From Candidatus Saccharimonadota bacterium (GTDB lineage: Bacteria > Patescibacteriota > Gracilibacteria > UBA4473), in contig OZ245819.1 in NCBI GenBank assembly GCA_965228485.1, positions 750,001-782,000 of the forward strand: 32,000 nucleotides of DNA. The letters are read 5' to 3'. Shown here piece after piece: positions 10,316 through 32,000 of the stretch (position 1 is the first letter of the stretch; each line of letters begins with the position of its first letter). The notes under the pieces were generated by a model that worked only from the letters and a program-made list of their open reading frames with translations, was not told the origin of the DNA and made no database searches. The position numbers were made by a program, and so were the translations under genes.

Positions 10316-10768
10316 ATGACAAAACTTCCATACTTACCACTCGGAAGGGAAATAAAATACGTTCCTGAATCGCACGAATTTATACAAGCAGCCAAAACGA
10401 TCGCACGCACTCAATCTCTTGACCCCGACCATCCCACAGGAGCCGTGATTGTAAAAAATAATACTATCATTGGACAGGGGGCCAACGGTTCTCAATTTCA
10501 CAAATTCCCTGGATGTTTAAGAAAAAAGGTAAAAGCTCCAACTGGAACAATGTACTGGATATGCCCTGGATGCTCTCCAAAAAATCACGCCGAACAAAGA
10601 GCTCTTCAAAACTGTAAACAAAAAAACTTGGAGACAAAGAATGCAGACCTCTACCTTTGGGGGCATTGGTGGTGCTGTAAATCATGCTGGTTTCATATGA
10701 TTCAGGCAGGTATAAACAATGTTTACCTCCCTGACAATGCTGAAGAGCACTTTAAAAAAGGAAACTAA
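10316..10768 (+). CDS. Cytidine/deoxycytidylate deaminase family protein (dCMP deaminase-like)
   Basis: HAEQRAL (H-A-E zinc/catalytic motif) and CCKSC (a variant of PCxxC). An extra CPGC pair sits just before HAE. Confidence 0.75.
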   Translation: MTKLPYLPLGREIKYVPESHEFIQAAKTIARTQSLDPDHPTGAVIVKNNTIIGQGANGSQFHKFPGCLRKKVKAPTGTMYWICPGCSPKNHAEQRALQNCKQKNLETKNADLYLWGHWWCCKSCWFHMIQAGINNVYLPDNAEEHFKKGN

Positions 10769-26850: not shown

Positions 26851-28143
26851 ATGGATATTTCTAGTTTTTTTGACTCAGGTGAACACCTTTATCAATTACT
26901 CATAGCCGTAGCCCTTGGAGCTTTTGTGGGTTTACGTCGAGAACTCGAAGCTCAAAACAAAAAGCAAACAAGCTTCATGGGATTTCGAACCATGGCACTA
27001 ATTTCAACATTTGGTGTTATTTCAACATTTTTCCCAACACTTCCCTATCTTCCAGTTGTTTTCTTTTTTTCTCTACTGGTTTTTGTTGCTATCGCTTACA
27101 CCAATGGAGCCTTCAACCTCAAACTTGTTGGAATCACTTCTGAAATATCAGCTCTATTCATGTTCTGGATTGGAGTACTTATTGGCTATGAACAACAAGT
27201 TCTCGCGGTAATTCTTACTATTTTCATTGCGGGGTTAAATGGATTCAAGGATGAACTCCACAATTTTGCTGGGACTATTAGCCCAAAAGAGTGGTCTGGA
27301 GCCCTGCAACTACTAGCCATTTCTGGAGCCGTCCTCCCATTTCTCCCTCGAGAACCGATTGATCCAATGGGAATTCTCGTCCCGTTTAATGTTTGGTTTC
27401 TTGTTATTCTTATCTCAGGAATTGGATTTATGGGATATTTCTTCAGTAAGTATTTAGGAGTTAAAGGAGGGATTCCCCTAACAGCATTCTTAGGTTCTAT
27501 AGTTTCTAGTACGGCTGTAACCACCTCTCTGTCCGACCAGTCCAAAAGAGCCAATCTCACTGGAATTTTTACCGTAGGGATTTTAATCGCCGTTGCCACT
27601 ATGCAGATTCGAGTAGCTGCTGAAGTATTTTTGTGGGGAAGCCCTGAAATCATTCGAGCTGTTGCTCCTATTCCAATTGCTATGTCTCTGTCCGCTTTTG
27701 CGTGTGCTATTTATTTCTTTTACCAAACAGGGAAAAAGCATAAATTCTCTCAAACAAAATCAAAAACACCTGAGAGCAAAGTTTCGCTTCACAGTCCATT
27801 TGAAATTATGCCAGCTATTAAATTTGGAGGTGTTTTCATTCTGGTTCTCTTTGCCCTTGCCGTTGGGCAAAAATATCTAGGCGATTCTGGAGTTTATGCG
27901 GCTGCCTTCTTTTCTGGGTTTGTAGATGTAGATGCAATTGTCCTTTCCTCTTTAGAATCAGTGAAACTAGGAGAAATGGAACCCAAGCTCGCTCAAAACG
28001 CTATTATCATTGCTAGTATTGTTAACACTCTGGTAAAAATATTTTATGTAGCCATCCTGGGAAGTAAGAAGCTCGTTAAAAAAGTAAGTATTGGTATTTT
28101 GATCACGGTTGCAGCTGGATTGTGTGCGCATTTAATTTGGTAA
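26851..28143 (+). CDS. MgtC/SapB-family domain plus DUF4010-like multi-TM membrane protein
   Basis: 430 aa. The N-terminal block LLIAVALGAFVGLRRE...GFRTMALIS is MgtC-type. About 10 hydrophobic helices follow (the DUF4010-like C-terminal half is assigned from memory). Confidence 0.8.
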   Translation: MDISSFFDSGEHLYQLLIAVALGAFVGLRRELEAQNKKQTSFMGFRTMALISTFGVISTFFPTLPYLPVVFFFSLLVFVAIAYTNGAFNLKLVGITSEISALFMFWIGVLIGYEQQVLAVILTIFIAGLNGFKDELHNFAGTISPKEWSGALQLLAISGAVLPFLPREPIDPMGILVPFNVWFLVILISGIGFMGYFFSKYLGVKGGIPLTAFLGSIVSSTAVTTSLSDQSKRANLTGIFTVGILIAVATMQIRVAAEVFLWGSPEIIRAVAPIPIAMSLSAFACAIYFFYQTGKKHKFSQTKSKTPESKVSLHSPFEIMPAIKFGGVFILVLFALAVGQKYLGDSGVYAAAFFSGFVDVDAIVLSSLESVKLGEMEPKLAQNAIIIASIVNTLVKIFYVAILGSKKLVKKVSIGILITVAAGLCAHLIW

Positions 28144-28154
28144 GCAAAAAAACC

Positions 28155-28183
28155 TTGTCTAACTTTTAAATAAGGCTTATATT
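28155..28183 (+). promoter_or_regulatory. Candidate promoter of the ileS leader
   Basis: TTGTCT (28155-28160), 17 nt, TATATT (28178-28183). This would produce a leader of about 215 nt. Confidence 0.45.
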
Positions 28184-28346
28184 GCGGTTGTTCTTTTTAA
28201 GATTAAAAAATTCCCTTGAGCGACCATCAATCGTAAACCTTTCACAAAAAAGGGGGAAGTCGGAAGAAATCCTTCACAAGAAGGAAATTAGAACCGAACA
28301 GTTTTGAAGCATTGTTTGTCTGTTAACAAAACAAGAAAGTAAAATT

Positions 28347-28377
28347 CAGGTTGGCACCGTCCAAAACAGGACACCTG
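28347..28377 (+). promoter_or_regulatory. T-box antiterminator element
   Basis: CAGGU/ACCUG (5 bp), a 7-nt 5'-side bulge UGGCACC (28352-28358), GUCC/GGAC (4 bp) and loop AAAACA. The sequence GGUUGGCACCGUC resembles the T-box core GGGUGGNACCGCG (from memory). Confidence 0.6.
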
Positions 28378-28402
28378 TACGAAATAAATTTCGTATTTTT
28401 TT
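28378..28402 (+). terminator. Terminator- or sequestrator-like hairpin immediately before the ileS start
   Basis: UACGAAA-UAAA-UUUCGUA (7 bp) followed by U7. It ends 3 nt before the ATG at 28406. Confidence 0.45.
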
Positions 28403-28405
28403 GTA

Positions 28406-31400
28406 ATGAAACAACCTTTTTTTACCGCTCCCGATCCTAAAAAATCTGTAAATGAGACTGAACTAGAAGTCTTAAATTTTTGGAAAGACAGCAATGTTTT
28501 TCAAGAGTCTGTTGAAAGTCGAAATCCAAATAATGAATTTGTATTTTTTGACGGTCCACCATTTGCTACTGGAACTCCTCACTACGGACATATTTTGGCA
28601 GGAACAATAAAAGATGCCATTCCTCGTTATTGGACTATGAAAGGATACCGAGTGAATCGAAAATTTGGATGGGACTGTCATGGTCTTCCCGTAGAATATC
28701 AGGTTGAAAAAGAACAGGCCATCGGTGGAAAACCTGGGATCGAAGCTATGGGAGTGGATAAATTCAATGAAATGTGTCGATCCATTGTTCTTCGCTGTCG
28801 AGATGAATGGGAAGATACCGTTGATAGAATGGGCCGTTTTGTAGACTTCAAAAACGATTATAAAACCATGGATTCTGAGTTCATGGAATCTGTTTGGTGG
28901 GTCTTCCAATCTCTTTGGGACAAAGGGCTTATCTACGAAGGGGAAAAAGTCGTTCCCTATAGTCCAAAACTTGGAAGTCCATTATCCAATTTTGAAGCTA
29001 ATCTAAACTATAAAGACATCGATGATCCCGCGGTAACCGTTAAATTTGAAATCTTGGACGAGGTTACATCTAAACCCGTGAACGATAAAAAAACTTATTT
29101 TCTTGCCTGGACAACAACCCCTTGGACACTCCCAAGTAATATTGCTCTGGGCTTTGGAAAAAATCATCAGTACATCCTGTTAGAACATGAAGGCGCTTAC
29201 TATTGGATAGCGGAAGATGCGGCCACAAAGTACTTTCCTGAAGATTTTGAAATTTTAGATCGACGTCTTGGGCATGAGTTTTTAAACGTCTCTTACAAAC
29301 CTCTCTTTAATTTTTTTACTAATGGTGAAGAAAAACGATTTATCTGTCTTCACGACGATGGAGATTACGTAACCACAGAATCCGGGACGGGGATTGTACA
29401 CTTTGCCCCTTCCTTTGGAGCAGAAGATGCTGAGCTTTGCGCAAAATTTGATGTATTTGGAGTCAATCCTATTGATGAAAATGGTTACTTCACAGACCAA
29501 ACTCCGCCGTTAGAAGGAAAATATTTCCGAGCCGATGAAGAAATAAAAGGATCAAAAGAAGATAATGCTAACACGTGGGTAATGCAAGATCTAAAAGAAC
29601 GAGGATTACTCTTTAAGCGAGATCAAATTCGCCATCAGTACCCGTTTTGTTGGAGGACAGATTGTGCTCTGATGTATCGAGGAATTAAGACCTGGTTTGT
29701 GAAAGTCAGCCAGATAAAAGAAGACCTTATTGCTAATAACCAAAACATTAATTGGACACCTTCGCACCTAAAAGATGGACGATTTGGAAAAATTCTTGAA
29801 AGCGCTCCCGATTGGGCCATCTCTCGAAACCGATATTGGGGATGCCCACTGCCTATTTGGCGTTGTGATAAAACTGGAGCCATTGAAGTCATTGGTTCTA
29901 GGGAAGAACTAGAAGCTAAAACAGGACAAACCGTAGAAGATCTTCACAAACACTTTGTTGATGAGCTCACTTGGGAAAACAAAGAAACAGGTGGGACCAT
30001 GAGAAGAATCCCGGAGGTTCTTGATTGTTGGTTTGAGAGCGGAAGTATGCCCTATGCCAGCAGACATTTTCCATTTGAAAAAGAACATGATCAGTCTGCA
30101 CAAGACTTCCGAAGTGCCAACTTTATTTCCGAAGGGATGGACCAAACTCGAGGGTGGTTTTACACTCTTCACGTTCTAGGAACGGCTTTGTTTGGTAAAA
30201 ACATCTTCGATAATGTCATCTGTAGTGGAATAGTTTTGGCAGAAGACGGAGAAAAAATGTCAAAATCCAAAAAAAACTATCCTGACCCAGGACTAATCTT
30301 TGAAAAATATGGAGCGGATGCCATGCGTTTTTACCTTCTACAATCTCCTGTGGCAACAAAAGGAGAAAATCTAAAATTTTCAGAAAGGGAAGTTGAGGAA
30401 GTTCTAAAAAATATCATTCTTCCATTAAAAAATGCATACCAGTTTTTATCAATGTATGCCAATATCGATGGTTGGGCACCAACGAAGTTTACACTTATCC
30501 GACACGGAGAGGCTGAGCACAATGTAGCCCGCATCTATTCTGGGAAAGCCTCAAACCCACACCATTTAACCAAAGATGGGAAAGTTCAAGCTGAAAAATT
30601 AGCCCAGAACATTACCCCAGTAGACGTCCTTGTGGCTTCTCCACTAGTACGGACACAAGAGACCGCTAAAGTAATTGCCGAAGTACAAGGTTTTAACGAA
30701 AAAATTATAACCGACGAACGATTTAAAGAAGTAGACTTTGGTGAACTTGAAGGGAGGACCTACATTGGACCAGAGCAAAGATTAAAAGAACCTTCTACCG
30801 AGCCATTAGAATCAATTCAAAAACGTTCTCTGGCTGGACTCAAAGAATTAAAAGAAACTCATCAAGGTTCACACATCGGAATTGTAAGTCATGGAGGGAC
30901 AATACGTAGCCTCCAAACAGCTTTACACGGAATCACGAAACAAGAAAAACACTTGGAGTTTCCAGCGATTGGAACTGGACAATCTCAGATTGCATTCTGC
31001 CCACCTGAAAGTGAAAATGAACTGGATCAATGGATTATGTCTGAATTACAGACACTAATTGAAAACTACAAAACAGACTTCGATCAATATGATACCGAAG
31101 GCGCGTGTAGGGCAATCTTGCCATTTATTGATAAACTAAATAATTGGTACTTGCGACGAAGCCGAAAGCGATTCTGGGCTGAAGGCTTGGATGCCGATAA
31201 GCAAAATGCCTACGAAACTCTACACTATACACTCTTTACGGTGAGTAAAATTCTAGCACCAATTATGCCATTTTTTGCTGATTGGCTTTACCAGAAAACT
31301 TCTGGTGAACAAAGTCGATCTGTTCATGTAGATTTTGTCCCATTTTCTATAACATCATATAAAAATGAAGCATTAGAAACAAAAGTGGGACTTGCTCGAG

Positions 31401-32000
31401 ACATTGTTCGGCTTGCCGCTTCTATTCGATCTCGTCAAAAAATAAAATTAAGACAACCACTACAAAAACTGCAGTTTGCTCTTACTCAAGAGGCGGATCT
31501 AGATCTTGAAACTATTGCCAATGAAGCCAATGTAAAAAAAGTTGAAATCCTCCAATCAGTTGATGGTATTGCTCAACAAATTATTAAAGTTGATGCCCGG
31601 AAAGTAGGACGAAAATTTGGAAAGAAAGTCCAAACATTAATCCAAGCAGGAAAGTCTGGTGATTTCAGTATCCTGCCAGACGGAAAAGTCGAAATCATGG
31701 ACGAAGTACTCGAAGCTGATGAATACGAGTTAGCTTTTATTACCGAAGAAGGAGTAGAGGCCGACGCCACCCCAGATGTAGTTGTGATTCTCAATACTGA
31801 AATAACAGAAGACTTAGCCCAAGAAGGACTTAGTCGAGAAGTTATCAGAAGTATTCAAGACTTAAGAAAACAAACCGGATTTGAAATTAGTGATCGCATT
31901 GAAATTATATTTGAAACTAATGATGAAATGCTCAAAACGATGTTTGTAAGTTTTGGGGATAACATTGCTCAAGAAGTTCTTGCTACAAATATTACAGAAG
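28406..32000 (+). CDS. ileS: Isoleucine--tRNA ligase, type 2 (eukaryote-like), with an inserted histidine-phosphatase domain; 3' end beyond the window
   Basis: My manual translation is open from ATG 28406 (in-frame TAA at 28385) to the window end, 1198 codons. It is absent from the ORF track only because there is no stop in the window. Motifs: FVFFDGPPFATGTPHYGHILAGTIKD (HYGH at 28580-28591), WTTTPWTLPSN, GWDCHGLPVE, DWAISRNRYWG, KMSKS (30254-30268), NNWYLRRSRKRFW, and a C-terminal EGLSREVIRSIQDLRKQTGFEISDRI. Confidence 0.95.
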   Translation, partial: MKQPFFTAPDPKKSVNETELEVLNFWKDSNVFQESVESRNPNNEFVFFDGPPFATGTPHYGHILAGTIKDAIPRYWTMKGYRVNRKFGWDCHGLPVEYQVEKEQAIGGKPGIEAMGVDKFNEMCRSIVLRCRDEWEDTVDRMGRFVDFKNDYKTMDSEFMESVWWVFQSLWDKGLIYEGEKVVPYSPKLGSPLSNFEANLNYKDIDDPAVTVKFEILDEVTSKPVNDKKTYFLAWTTTPWTLPSNIALGFGKNHQYILLEHEGAYYWIAEDAATKYFPEDFEILDRRLGHEFLNVSYKPLFNFFTNGEEKRFICLHDDGDYVTTESGTGIVHFAPSFGAEDAELCAKFDVFGVNPIDENGYFTDQTPPLEGKYFRADEEIKGSKEDNANTWVMQDLKERGLLFKRDQIRHQYPFCWRTDCALMYRGIKTWFVKVSQIKEDLIANNQNINWTPSHLKDGRFGKILESAPDWAISRNRYWGCPLPIWRCDKTGAIEVIGSREELEAKTGQTVEDLHKHFVDELTWENKETGGTMRRIPEVLDCWFESGSMPYASRHFPFEKEHDQSAQDFRSANFISEGMDQTRGWFYTLHVLGTALFGKNIFDNVICSGIVLAEDGEKMSKSKKNYPDPGLIFEKYGADAMRFYLLQSPVATKGENLKFSEREVEEVLKNIILPLKNAYQFLSMYANIDGWAPTKFTLIRHGEAEHNVARIYSGKASNPHHLTKDGKVQAEKLAQNITPVDVLVASPLVRTQETAKVIAEVQGFNEKIITDERFKEVDFGELEGRTYIGPEQRLKEPSTEPLESIQKRSLAGLKELKETHQGSHIGIVSHGGTIRSLQTALHGITKQEKHLEFPAIGTGQSQIAFCPPESENELDQWIMSELQTLIENYKTDFDQYDTEGACRAILPFIDKLNNWYLRRSRKRFWAEGLDADKQNAYETLHYTLFTVSKILAPIMPFFADWLYQKTSGEQSRSVHVDFVPFSITSYKNEALETKVGLARDIVRLAASIRSRQKIKLRQPLQKLQFALTQEADLDLETIANEANVKKVEILQSVDGIAQQIIKVDARKVGRKFGKKVQTLIQAGKSGDFSILPDGKVEIMDEVLEADEYELAFITEEGVEADATPDVVVILNTEITEDLAQEGLSREVIRSIQDLRKQTGFEISDRIEIIFETNDEMLKTMFVSFGDNIAQEVLATNITE
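30485..31006 (+). other. Histidine-phosphatase (PGAM/CobC/SixA superfamily) domain inserted in IleRS (residues about 694-867)
   Basis: KFTLIRHGEAEHN (RHG motif), LVASPLVRTQETAKVIA (second catalytic Arg), EVDFGELEGRT (conserved Glu block) and IGIVSHGGTIRSL (C-terminal catalytic His). The flanks are the IleRS blocks ...NAYQFLSMYANIDGWAPT and ENELDQWIMSELQTLIENY... Confidence 0.8.

Follow-up and report, generated by a model that had tools for sequence, protein, structure and literature searches.

In canonical transcriptional T-boxes (Rfam family RF00230; for example, tyrS and glyQS of Bacillus subtilis), a specifier reads the tRNA anticodon, and the UGGN sequence at the 5' edge of the 7-nt bulge between helices A1 and A2 reads the CCA end. 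According to reviews, all T-boxes share a near-identical discriminator core composed of Stem III, A1, A2 and the G-U sensor; Stem III is indispensable, and transcriptional T-boxes need a long Stem I. In particular, the distal platform of Stem I is generally needed by transcriptional T-boxes for fast tRNA capture, Stem III is an integral part of the discriminator for binding of the tRNA 3' end, the G-U wobble at the base of A2 belongs to the T-box definition as the steric sensor of the 3'-aminoacyl group, and stacking of the tRNA on A1 is the established ON signal (PMC7583486). Translational ileS T-boxes with an ultrashort Stem I are described, as far as the sources used here go, in Mycobacterium tuberculosis, M. 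smegmatis and Nocardia farcinica (Sherwood et al. 2015, as cited in PMC7583486; PMC11297988), and an apical-loop Stem I without the elbow platform was previously found only in such translational actinobacterial T-boxes (PMC7583486). Here we analyzed a 32,000-nt stretch of DNA from Candidatus Saccharimonadota bacterium (assembly GCA_965228485.1, contig OZ245819.1, positions 750,001-782,000 of the forward strand; below, the window, whose own numbering is used throughout), where the gene of isoleucyl-tRNA synthetase (IleRS), ileS, starts at 28406 on the plus strand. The ileS leader is very probably an isoleucine (Ile) T-box riboswitch, as an original prediction from this sequence had proposed in calling it an atypical T-box leader; the proposal is supported by matches of a covariance model, the AUC loop, the UGGNACC bulge and covariation. 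We also consider it moderately probable that the 5' leader 28190-28405 is an Ile-specific T-box of a lineage-specific design acting by tRNA-Ile-dependent transcription attenuation. Judging by sequence comparison, it belongs to an unannotated T-box family that is missed by RF00230 and is conserved across Gracilibacteria-type candidate-phyla bacteria.

With the actinobacterial ileS T-boxes the leader and its family share the regulated gene, the AUC specifier in an apical hairpin loop and the lack of a distal Stem I platform, as well as the S-turn of Stem II, the Stem IIA/B pseudoknot with the F-box CCGUYA, the RAG linker and the UGGNACC bulge; for both, RF00230 is insufficient. By contrast, the window leader has neither a Shine-Dalgarno sequence nor a sequestrator, and a hairpin with a U-run is found instead. 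There is no Stem III in the window or in a majority of relatives, Stem I and a second variable hairpin are nested in an outer helix (P1), the family core is UCGAGAUGGUACCGUC and not AGGGUGGNACCGCG, and the host is of the Patescibacteria/Gracilibacteria type. Similar to the canonical transcriptional T-boxes, the leader reads the tRNA by a specifier and by UGGN at the 5' edge of the A1-A2 bulge, has Stem II and a pseudoknot as in the tyrS type, and carries an intrinsic-terminator-like hairpin and a U-run before the gene. Unlike them, it has no long Stem I, its specifier is in a terminal rather than an internal loop, Stem III is missing, the base of A2 is G-C and not G-U, and the 5' strand of the terminator, which starts 0-2 nt within the A1 end, is not made of the 3' strands of A1 and A2.

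The T-box assignment is carried by comparison with relatives. A search with the IleRS N-terminus yielded, as the nearest relatives, metagenome-assembled genomes labelled Candidatus Gracilibacteria, Altimarinota, Peribacteria, and Peregrinibacteria (Patescibacteria group), with identity not exceeding 81%. UGGNACC is present upstream of ileS in 22 out of 32 such loci, always between two helices and followed by a separate hairpin with a U-run. Comparison of the 300 nt upstream of ileS demonstrated that the whole leader is conserved, beyond the antiterminator, and in a MAFFT alignment of 19 leaders the invariant columns are AUC of the specifier, AGAA and A.UAGA of Stem II, one C of the pseudoknot, and G.UGG.ACC. 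When the helix assignments were mapped on this plain alignment (551 cells), 97.1% of cells contained standard pairs, compared to 37-51% with the 3' partners slid by 1-3 columns; changes on both sides were seen at 25 of 29 pairs, and the covariation score was not attained in any of 500 shuffles. In a structure-guided, N-padded alignment of 25 leaders 98.3% of cells were paired and 29 of 31 pairs had compensatory changes; the MAFFT result outweighs this one, because the latter alignment was fitted to the structure. Compensatory changes were found in every helix, and all helices are intact in the window. It is this conservation that lifts the observation above chance, as the fold of the single sequence is no better than chance, with RNAfold z-scores of only -1.1 and -1.4. 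In particular, the fold at 28347-28377 is strongly conserved in relatives and covaries; the original prediction would have been abandoned if a missing RF00230 match had come together with a lack of such conservation, and it did not.

We used the MAFFT alignment to build a covariance model, R1 (171 positions, 26 pairs), and searched 160 loci (referred to below by labels such as L001). In the window, R1 matched only 28206-28377 (134.5 bits, E = 5e-37), a score that is partly by construction, as the window is among the 19 seeds; the evidence independent of the window is the sequence matches of R1 outside the seed, together with covariation. R1 identified ~49 non-redundant leaders upstream of ileS or of ileS-containing operons in Gracilibacteria, Peregrinibacteria, and related loci. 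The bulge in these matches is nearly always UGGUACC, the exceptions being UGGCACC (the window and L081), UGGAACC (L003), and UGGUAAC (L079), and AUC is invariant in the hairpin loop (NNAUCNN) of all matches above ~19 bits. In addition, R1 weakly matched Acidimicrobiia ileS leaders with the classic AAACCGGGUGGUACCGCGG core (24-26 bits, E ~1e-4); at the sequence level, these weak cross-matches may link the Gracilibacteria-type family to the known actinobacterial ileS T-boxes.

RF00230 (Rfam 15) had no match in the window at the gathering threshold and none on 28100-28450 (351 nt) even at E <= 10. There were no matches either in 28 relatives (20 searched at the gathering threshold and 8 at E <= 10), or, at the gathering threshold, in 14 ileS loci of Acidimicrobiia and Actinomycetes, the presumed positive control. 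Still, in three of the latter (L048, L066, L075) R1 detected T-box-like leaders with the GGGUGGUACC core. Since RF00230 also misses actinobacterial-type ileS leaders that are found by R1, its miss in the window is uninformative; in line with this, translational ileS T-boxes were covered in TBDB only with a custom model. Therefore, the RF00230 check proposed along with the original prediction came out negative, but the model is insensitive for leaders with short Stem I, and its silence is not evidence against a T-box. Sub-threshold Rfam matches in the leader, that is, tracrRNA (21.6 bits vs. the gathering score of 70), PreQ1, PyrR, SpF36, and enod40, were rejected as hairpin/U-run or A-rich look-alikes.

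The region 28206-28377 is supported by the sequence comparisons as an Ile-specific decoding and discriminator unit. Its outer helix P1 (28211-28258), formed by UUCCC 28211-28215 and GGGAA 28254-28258, encloses the specifier hairpin as well as a second, variable hairpin region (28235-28253). P1 is paired in 94% of cells of the plain MAFFT alignment and in 98% of cells of the structure-guided one, the latter with compensatory changes at all five pairs. Inside P1, GCGA 28220-28223 and UCGU 28231-28234 form an ultrashort Stem I (28220-28234) with the 7-nt loop CCAUCAA (28224-28230), where the specifier AUC, an Ile codon, occupies 28226-28228 and is followed by A. Stem I is conserved and covaries at four of four pairs, with GC, AU, and GU variants. 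Both the outer helix with the nested hairpin and the AUC loop are where the original prediction had placed them. It had recognized neither a Stem I platform nor a kink-turn (K-turn), and rightly so, as the window leader has no distal, elbow-binding platform, no recognizable canonical K-turn and no AG bulge. The Stem I junction inside P1 is flanked by GA/GA and may be K-turn-like.

On the other hand, Stem II and the IIA/B pseudoknot, reported as unrecognizable in the original prediction, are both present and covary. Stem II (28260-28297) comprises the lower helix UCGG/CCGA, an S-turn, and the upper helix UCCUUC/GAAGGA. The S-turn strands, AAGAAA (with AGAA at 28265-28268) and AAUUAGAA (with UAGA at 28289-28292), contain the invariant columns AGAA and A.UAGA, and the motif agrees with the S-turn described in PMC7583486; the helices are paired in 98-100% of cells, and 7 of 7 pairs covary. 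In the pseudoknot (28299-28332), CAG 28299-28301 pairs with CUG 28320-28322 in the loop of the hairpin GUUUGU/ACAAAC (28314-28332). The pseudoknot is paired in all cells, with CG, GC, AU, UA, and GU variants. Its consensus in relatives is CGG with CCGUYA, and the F-box of N. farcinica is CCGUCA (PMC7583486); the equivalent in the window is CUGUUA, and the CAG/CUG pairing is itself compensatory relative to CGG/CCG.

Some family members deviate from this layout. In L005:2794-2945 (= L082) and L084:4737-4903 the IIA/B pseudoknot is wholly missing, with ~22 nt from Stem II to A1, while the specifier, the S-turn, the bulge, and the abutting terminator are retained. Insertions of 60-100 nt in the second hairpin or in apical Stem II occur in L008:2664-2932 (= L087), L013, L024, L085, and L097. 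In L008, the S-turn AGAA, invariant elsewhere, is replaced by AAAA.

Parsing of the leaders placed a purine-rich linker, AAGAAAGUAAAAUU, between the pseudoknot and A1 (28333-28346); it carries an AAG resembling the 'RAG' linker feature (PMC11297988) and has no Stem III. The spacing between the pseudoknot and A1 in the window amounts to 14-17 purine-rich nucleotides (AACAAGAAAGUAAAAUU) in which no helix is possible and only the purine flanks (AAG ... AAAA) remain. Stem III is missing in 16 of the 27 parsed leaders, where the spacing is 16-22 nt; in the remaining 11, AAUUAAG and (G/A)AA flank a hairpin. The antiterminator-type element follows at 28347-28377. It consists of A1 (CAGGU 28347-28351 with ACCUG 28373-28377), the bulge UGGCACC (28352-28358), A2 (GUCC 28359-28362 with GGAC 28369-28372), and the loop AAAACA. 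The helices and the 7-nt bulge match the original prediction to the nucleotide, and both the minimum free energy (MFE) and the centroid structures from RNAfold contain this fold plus the 3' hairpin. A1 covaries at four of five pairs (CGAGA/UCUCG, UUGGA/UCCAA, CAAGG/CCUUG, CAGGU/ACCUG, and others), the window variant being a compensatory change relative to the consensus CGAGA/UCUCG, and A2 at three of three pairs. The basal pair of A2 is G28359-C28372 in the window; among 25 leaders it is G-C in 21, G-U in 2, A-U in 1, and U-A in 1. The small hairpin ACAGG-ACA-CCUGU (28366-28378), suggested earlier as a competitor of the antiterminator, was rejected as a switch partner, as it is not conserved in the relatives L001 and L007.

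At the fourth position of UGGN nearly all leaders have U, among them L001, L002, and L004 from the same subclade as the window (IleRS at least 77% identical); the window and L081 have C, and L003 has A. As three different bases occur within one shallow clade, the sequences suggest a relaxed fourth pair and not a changed tRNA; the suggestion that C at this position predicts a G73 discriminator in tRNA-Ile is therefore unsupported. ARAGORN found no tRNA-Ile gene in the window or in 66 loci of the Gracilibacteria/Peregrinibacteria type, and no tRNA gene of any kind in the window. In three loci from distant, uncultured bacteria, a tmRNA gene is located on the opposite strand just upstream of ileS (L062:2187-2595, L070:2439-2851, L109:3546-3939).

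Immediately after A1, the terminator-like hairpin UACGAAA-UAAA-UUUCGUA (28378-28395) with the U7 run (28396-28402) forms a feature (28378-28402) whose position is conserved in the family and which, as predicted, ends 3 nt before the ATG. The hairpin is self-contained, and the sole A1 nucleotide it could share is G28377, as a G-U pair with U28396. The earlier observation that it shares almost nothing with the antiterminator is thus correct, but this is a conserved property of the family and no defect of the window copy. The predicted free energy of the hairpin is -5.5 kcal/mol, and a simple terminator scan does not flag it. Moreover, a relaxed scan revealed ~10 chance occurrences of a weak hairpin with U6 in the window, mostly inside genes; for this reason the hairpin and U7 alone are no evidence, and only the conserved position counts. 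Of 49 family members, 34 have a hairpin with a U-run of at least 5 within 10-55 nt after A1; for random positions drawn from these loci (980 in all), the share is 3.4%. Measured from the end of A1, the hairpin starts at -3 to +2 nt, and the first U of the run lies 18-26 nt downstream. The terminator stems diverge between close relatives yet stay paired (UACGAAA, CACAAA, CACAUAAA, CACGAAUA, CACGAG). The distance from the U-run to the ATG varies from 0 to ~140 nt across the family, being 0-4 nt in the subclade of the window and 44-143 nt in L008, L012, L013, L014, L024, L026, L085, and L097. Because this distance varies, the U-run belongs to the T-box and not to the start codon, which speaks for a terminator and against a ribosome-site element.

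Switching was assessed by folding the segment from A1 to the U-run in 38 leaders. The MFE structure of 21 of them, including the window, holds the hairpin along with at least 4 pairs of A1. In the closest relatives (L001, L002, L081), a 2-nt overlap suffices to remove A1 from the MFE structure, and in many other leaders the outermost A1 pair is taken by the terminator. The overlap of A1 and the terminator is larger, 4-5 nt, in L022, L031, and L094, and in L047 and L058, of the Peregrinibacteria type, the terminator and A1 are fully mutually exclusive. The Peregrinibacteria-type leaders (L047, L053, L056, L058, L124) and those of L148 and L150 are similar to the window leader in belonging to the R1 family (19-63 bits) and in having the AUC loop, the S-turn, and UGGUACC, but the terminator excludes A1 in L047, L058, L148, and L150, whereas the window hairpin is self-contained. 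[quoted passage not shown] Pairing of the terminator strands with the 3' strand of the specifier hairpin (UACGA with UCGUA) was considered and rejected, as it is seen in the window only.

We propose the following mechanism. Uncharged tRNA-Ile would pair by its GAU anticodon with AUC and by its CCA end with UGG of the bulge; the bound tRNA would stabilize A1, and RNA polymerase would then pass the hairpin and the U-tract and enter ileS. If tRNA is lacking or charged, transcription would halt at the U-tract. Transcription attenuation as the output seems to us rather probable. The weakest step is the coupling, that is, a specific junction or steric link of the T-box to the terminator, which we put forward tentatively. 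No spacer separates the terminator stem from the A1 3' strand: the stem begins at the end of this strand or takes in up to its last 2 nt. A1 has only 5 bp beside its bulge of 7 nt, and it could compete with the lowest pairs of the terminator for the junction nucleotides, in the window for G28377 alone; in leaders of the window type, the coupling would have been reduced to this competition, compared to the larger overlaps in other relatives. A rigid tRNA-bound A1 at the stem base may also hinder completion of the hairpin at the polymerase. A possible but rather doubtful form of this idea is that no strand exchange takes part in the coupling of tRNA sensing to an intrinsic terminator, with the zero-spacer hairpin sitting on A1 and 1-2 nt of the junction, or sterics and stacking, deciding the outcome; the hairpin would then either replace Stem III or be blocked at the polymerase by the tRNA-bound A1.

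Several observations weigh against the attenuation reading. The RF00230 model does not match the leader even at the permissive cutoff. The leader has no Stem I distal platform, although transcriptional T-boxes generally need one, and no Stem III, although the review calls it indispensable (PMC7583486). A2 closes with G-C in place of the G-U steric sensor, and the C of UGGC would mismatch the usual A73. The hairpin is weak, and comparable hairpins with U6 arise by chance in the window. Finally, the modelled MFE structure of the window holds both A1 (5 bp) and the 7-bp terminator, so that secondary structure alone gives no switch.

The main alternative is a T-box without regulated termination, in which the hairpin 28378-28395 would stack on the open end of A1 as a substitute for Stem III and the output would be translation initiation or mRNA stability at the AUG, which has no Shine-Dalgarno sequence and follows the U-tract after 3 nt. 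In one version, the purine-rich linker would dock on the tRNA/bulge helix in the presence of tRNA and pair with the U-tract otherwise. The known T-boxes with a short apical-loop Stem I do act on translation (PMC7583486), every leader lacking Stem III has the 3' hairpin at an offset of 0 or less, and looser spacing (+1, +2, or no hairpin) is seen only in leaders having Stem III; the proximity of the AUG to the U-run in the subclade and the coexistence of A1 and the hairpin in the window MFE structure are also in line with it. However, several members possess both Stem III and the hairpin, a hairpin directly before 5-8 U is what characterizes an intrinsic terminator, and the long distances from the U-run to the ATG in many members mean that the U-run tracks A1 and not the start codon, while the linker pairing of A and U is of low complexity and beyond covariation testing. 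On balance, we consider this explanation unlikely.

Even less likely, in our opinion, is a decaying or uncoupled T-box, whose tRNA-binding modules would be inherited while the terminator would be constitutive or partial in the subclade of the window and charging would no longer be reported. Such decay would account for the C in UGGC, the missing Stem III, and the 1-nt overlap, and it agrees with the variation of N (U, C, A) only within this subclade, as well as with the weak terminator and the lack of competition in the window MFE structure. Still, every helix of the window is intact, A1 and the pseudoknot carry compensatory changes, the R1 score is in the upper range of the family, and the terminator stem has diverged from that of close relatives yet is paired; moreover, a constitutive terminator before an essential single-copy gene would be costly. 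As for a chance likeness of the UGGNACC bulge and the AUC loop in some other structured RNA or spacer, it could appeal to the absence of an Rfam T-box match, the insignificant z-scores, and the sub-threshold hits to tracrRNA, PreQ1, and PyrR. We regard it as highly improbable, since the bulge and the loop are conserved with covariation in ~49 leaders, R1 cross-matches actinobacterial ileS leaders, and the other Rfam hits are far below their gathering scores.

The Gracilibacteria/Peregrinibacteria-type family departs from each of the three rules given in reviews, on the uniform discriminator core, on Stem III, and on the long Stem I, and shows at least three terminator arrangements within one clade. 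It thus provides natural minimal variants for testing the requirements of aminoacylation sensing and of coupling to termination. Coupling without strand exchange, if true, would be a new logic of the expression platform for riboswitches, and it would mean that an elbow-binding Stem I platform is dispensable for a transcriptional T-box. A literature search for T-boxes together with Gracilibacteria, the candidate phyla radiation (CPR), or Patescibacteria found no report, although its coverage was incomplete and an earlier description is possible, and TBDB does not mention phyla of the Gracilibacteria/Patescibacteria type. The present family would be the first one of T-boxes to be described in candidate-phyla bacteria (Patescibacteria), extending tRNA-based regulation to bacteria with reduced genomes and mostly leaderless genes. 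With a covariance model for the family, ileS leaders in CPR genomes could be annotated correctly.

Upstream of the leader, a promoter-like site of the sigma70 type, TTGTCT-17-TATATT (28155-28183, with TTGTCT at 28155-28160 and TATATT at 28178-28183), is located exactly as predicted. It was also found by a promoter scan, and TTG...17...TAnnnT is kept at an equal position relative to the leader in 12 relatives. It is followed by the conserved motif GUUCUUUUU (28190-28198), located at the predicted 5' end of the leader RNA. The consensus G(U/C)UCUUU(U) is near-invariant in the 12 relatives ~7 nt 3' of the conserved -10 box; the loci with this motif are the window plus L001, L002, L004, L007, L011, L012, L014, L017, L022, L081, and L003. 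On paper the 5' motif, GUUCUUUU, is complementary to the S-turn strand, GGAAGAAA, but a pairing was rejected for lack of covariation: the motif and the S-turn strand (GGAAGAA) are both near-invariant, and the variants GCUCUUU in L001 and GAUCUUU in L017 do not co-vary. A second promoter-like site from the scan, TTGTCT-18-TAAAAT (28316-28345), falls within the covarying pseudoknot hairpin and was dismissed as a coincidence. An open reading frame (ORF) at 28182-28307 (41 aa, TTG start) was considered as a leader peptide but set aside; it overlaps the conserved RNA helices.

The start regions of the 28 window genes were inspected, and most of the genes have no Shine-Dalgarno sequence. In several of them (e.g. 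at 10316, 25168, 25655, and 26851), TATAAT ends 6-8 nt 5' of the ATG, which implies, from sequence, that their mRNAs are leaderless. The original prediction had remarked that many neighboring genes have almost no leader, and this holds: the window genes are mostly leaderless or without Shine-Dalgarno sequences, and the ileS leader of ~215 nt is an exception. As ileS itself follows the rule, with no Shine-Dalgarno-like sequence between 28378 and 28405, the leader has none to sequester. The ATG at 28406 is preceded by GUA after U7, and ileS (28406-32000, plus strand) runs past the window end; its translation contains the Pfam domains tRNA-synt_1 (E = 1.7e-140), Anticodon_1, and DUF5915.

In some loci, the AUC T-box precedes another gene located 5' of ileS (L003:768-949, L015:2273-2438, L018:2216-2507, L025:975-1185, L027:1212-1445, L031:464-675, L083:3700-3868, L091:9264-9458, L094:1412-1622, and L096:6824-7008). 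There, the T-box would control an operon rather than ileS alone. The interposed genes, examined by eye, include those encoding a small membrane protein, an RpiB-like protein, and a protein of 160-170 aa common to L015 and L091.

The IleRS protein carries an inserted histidine-phosphatase domain (Pfam His_Phos_1, E = 2e-30, with the RHG motif) at residues 696-847 (window positions 30491-30946), between the catalytic core and the anticodon-binding domain. By tblastn, the insertion was also found in ileS of ~35 Gracilibacteria-type relatives, and some of them (L006, L008, L017, L019) have two tandem copies. Some Gracilibacteria/Altimarinota translate UGA as glycine. The 27 complete ORFs of the window end with TAA (14), TAG (11), and TGA (only 2). 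With table 11 the ORFs read through intact, and no in-frame TGA occurs in IleRS.

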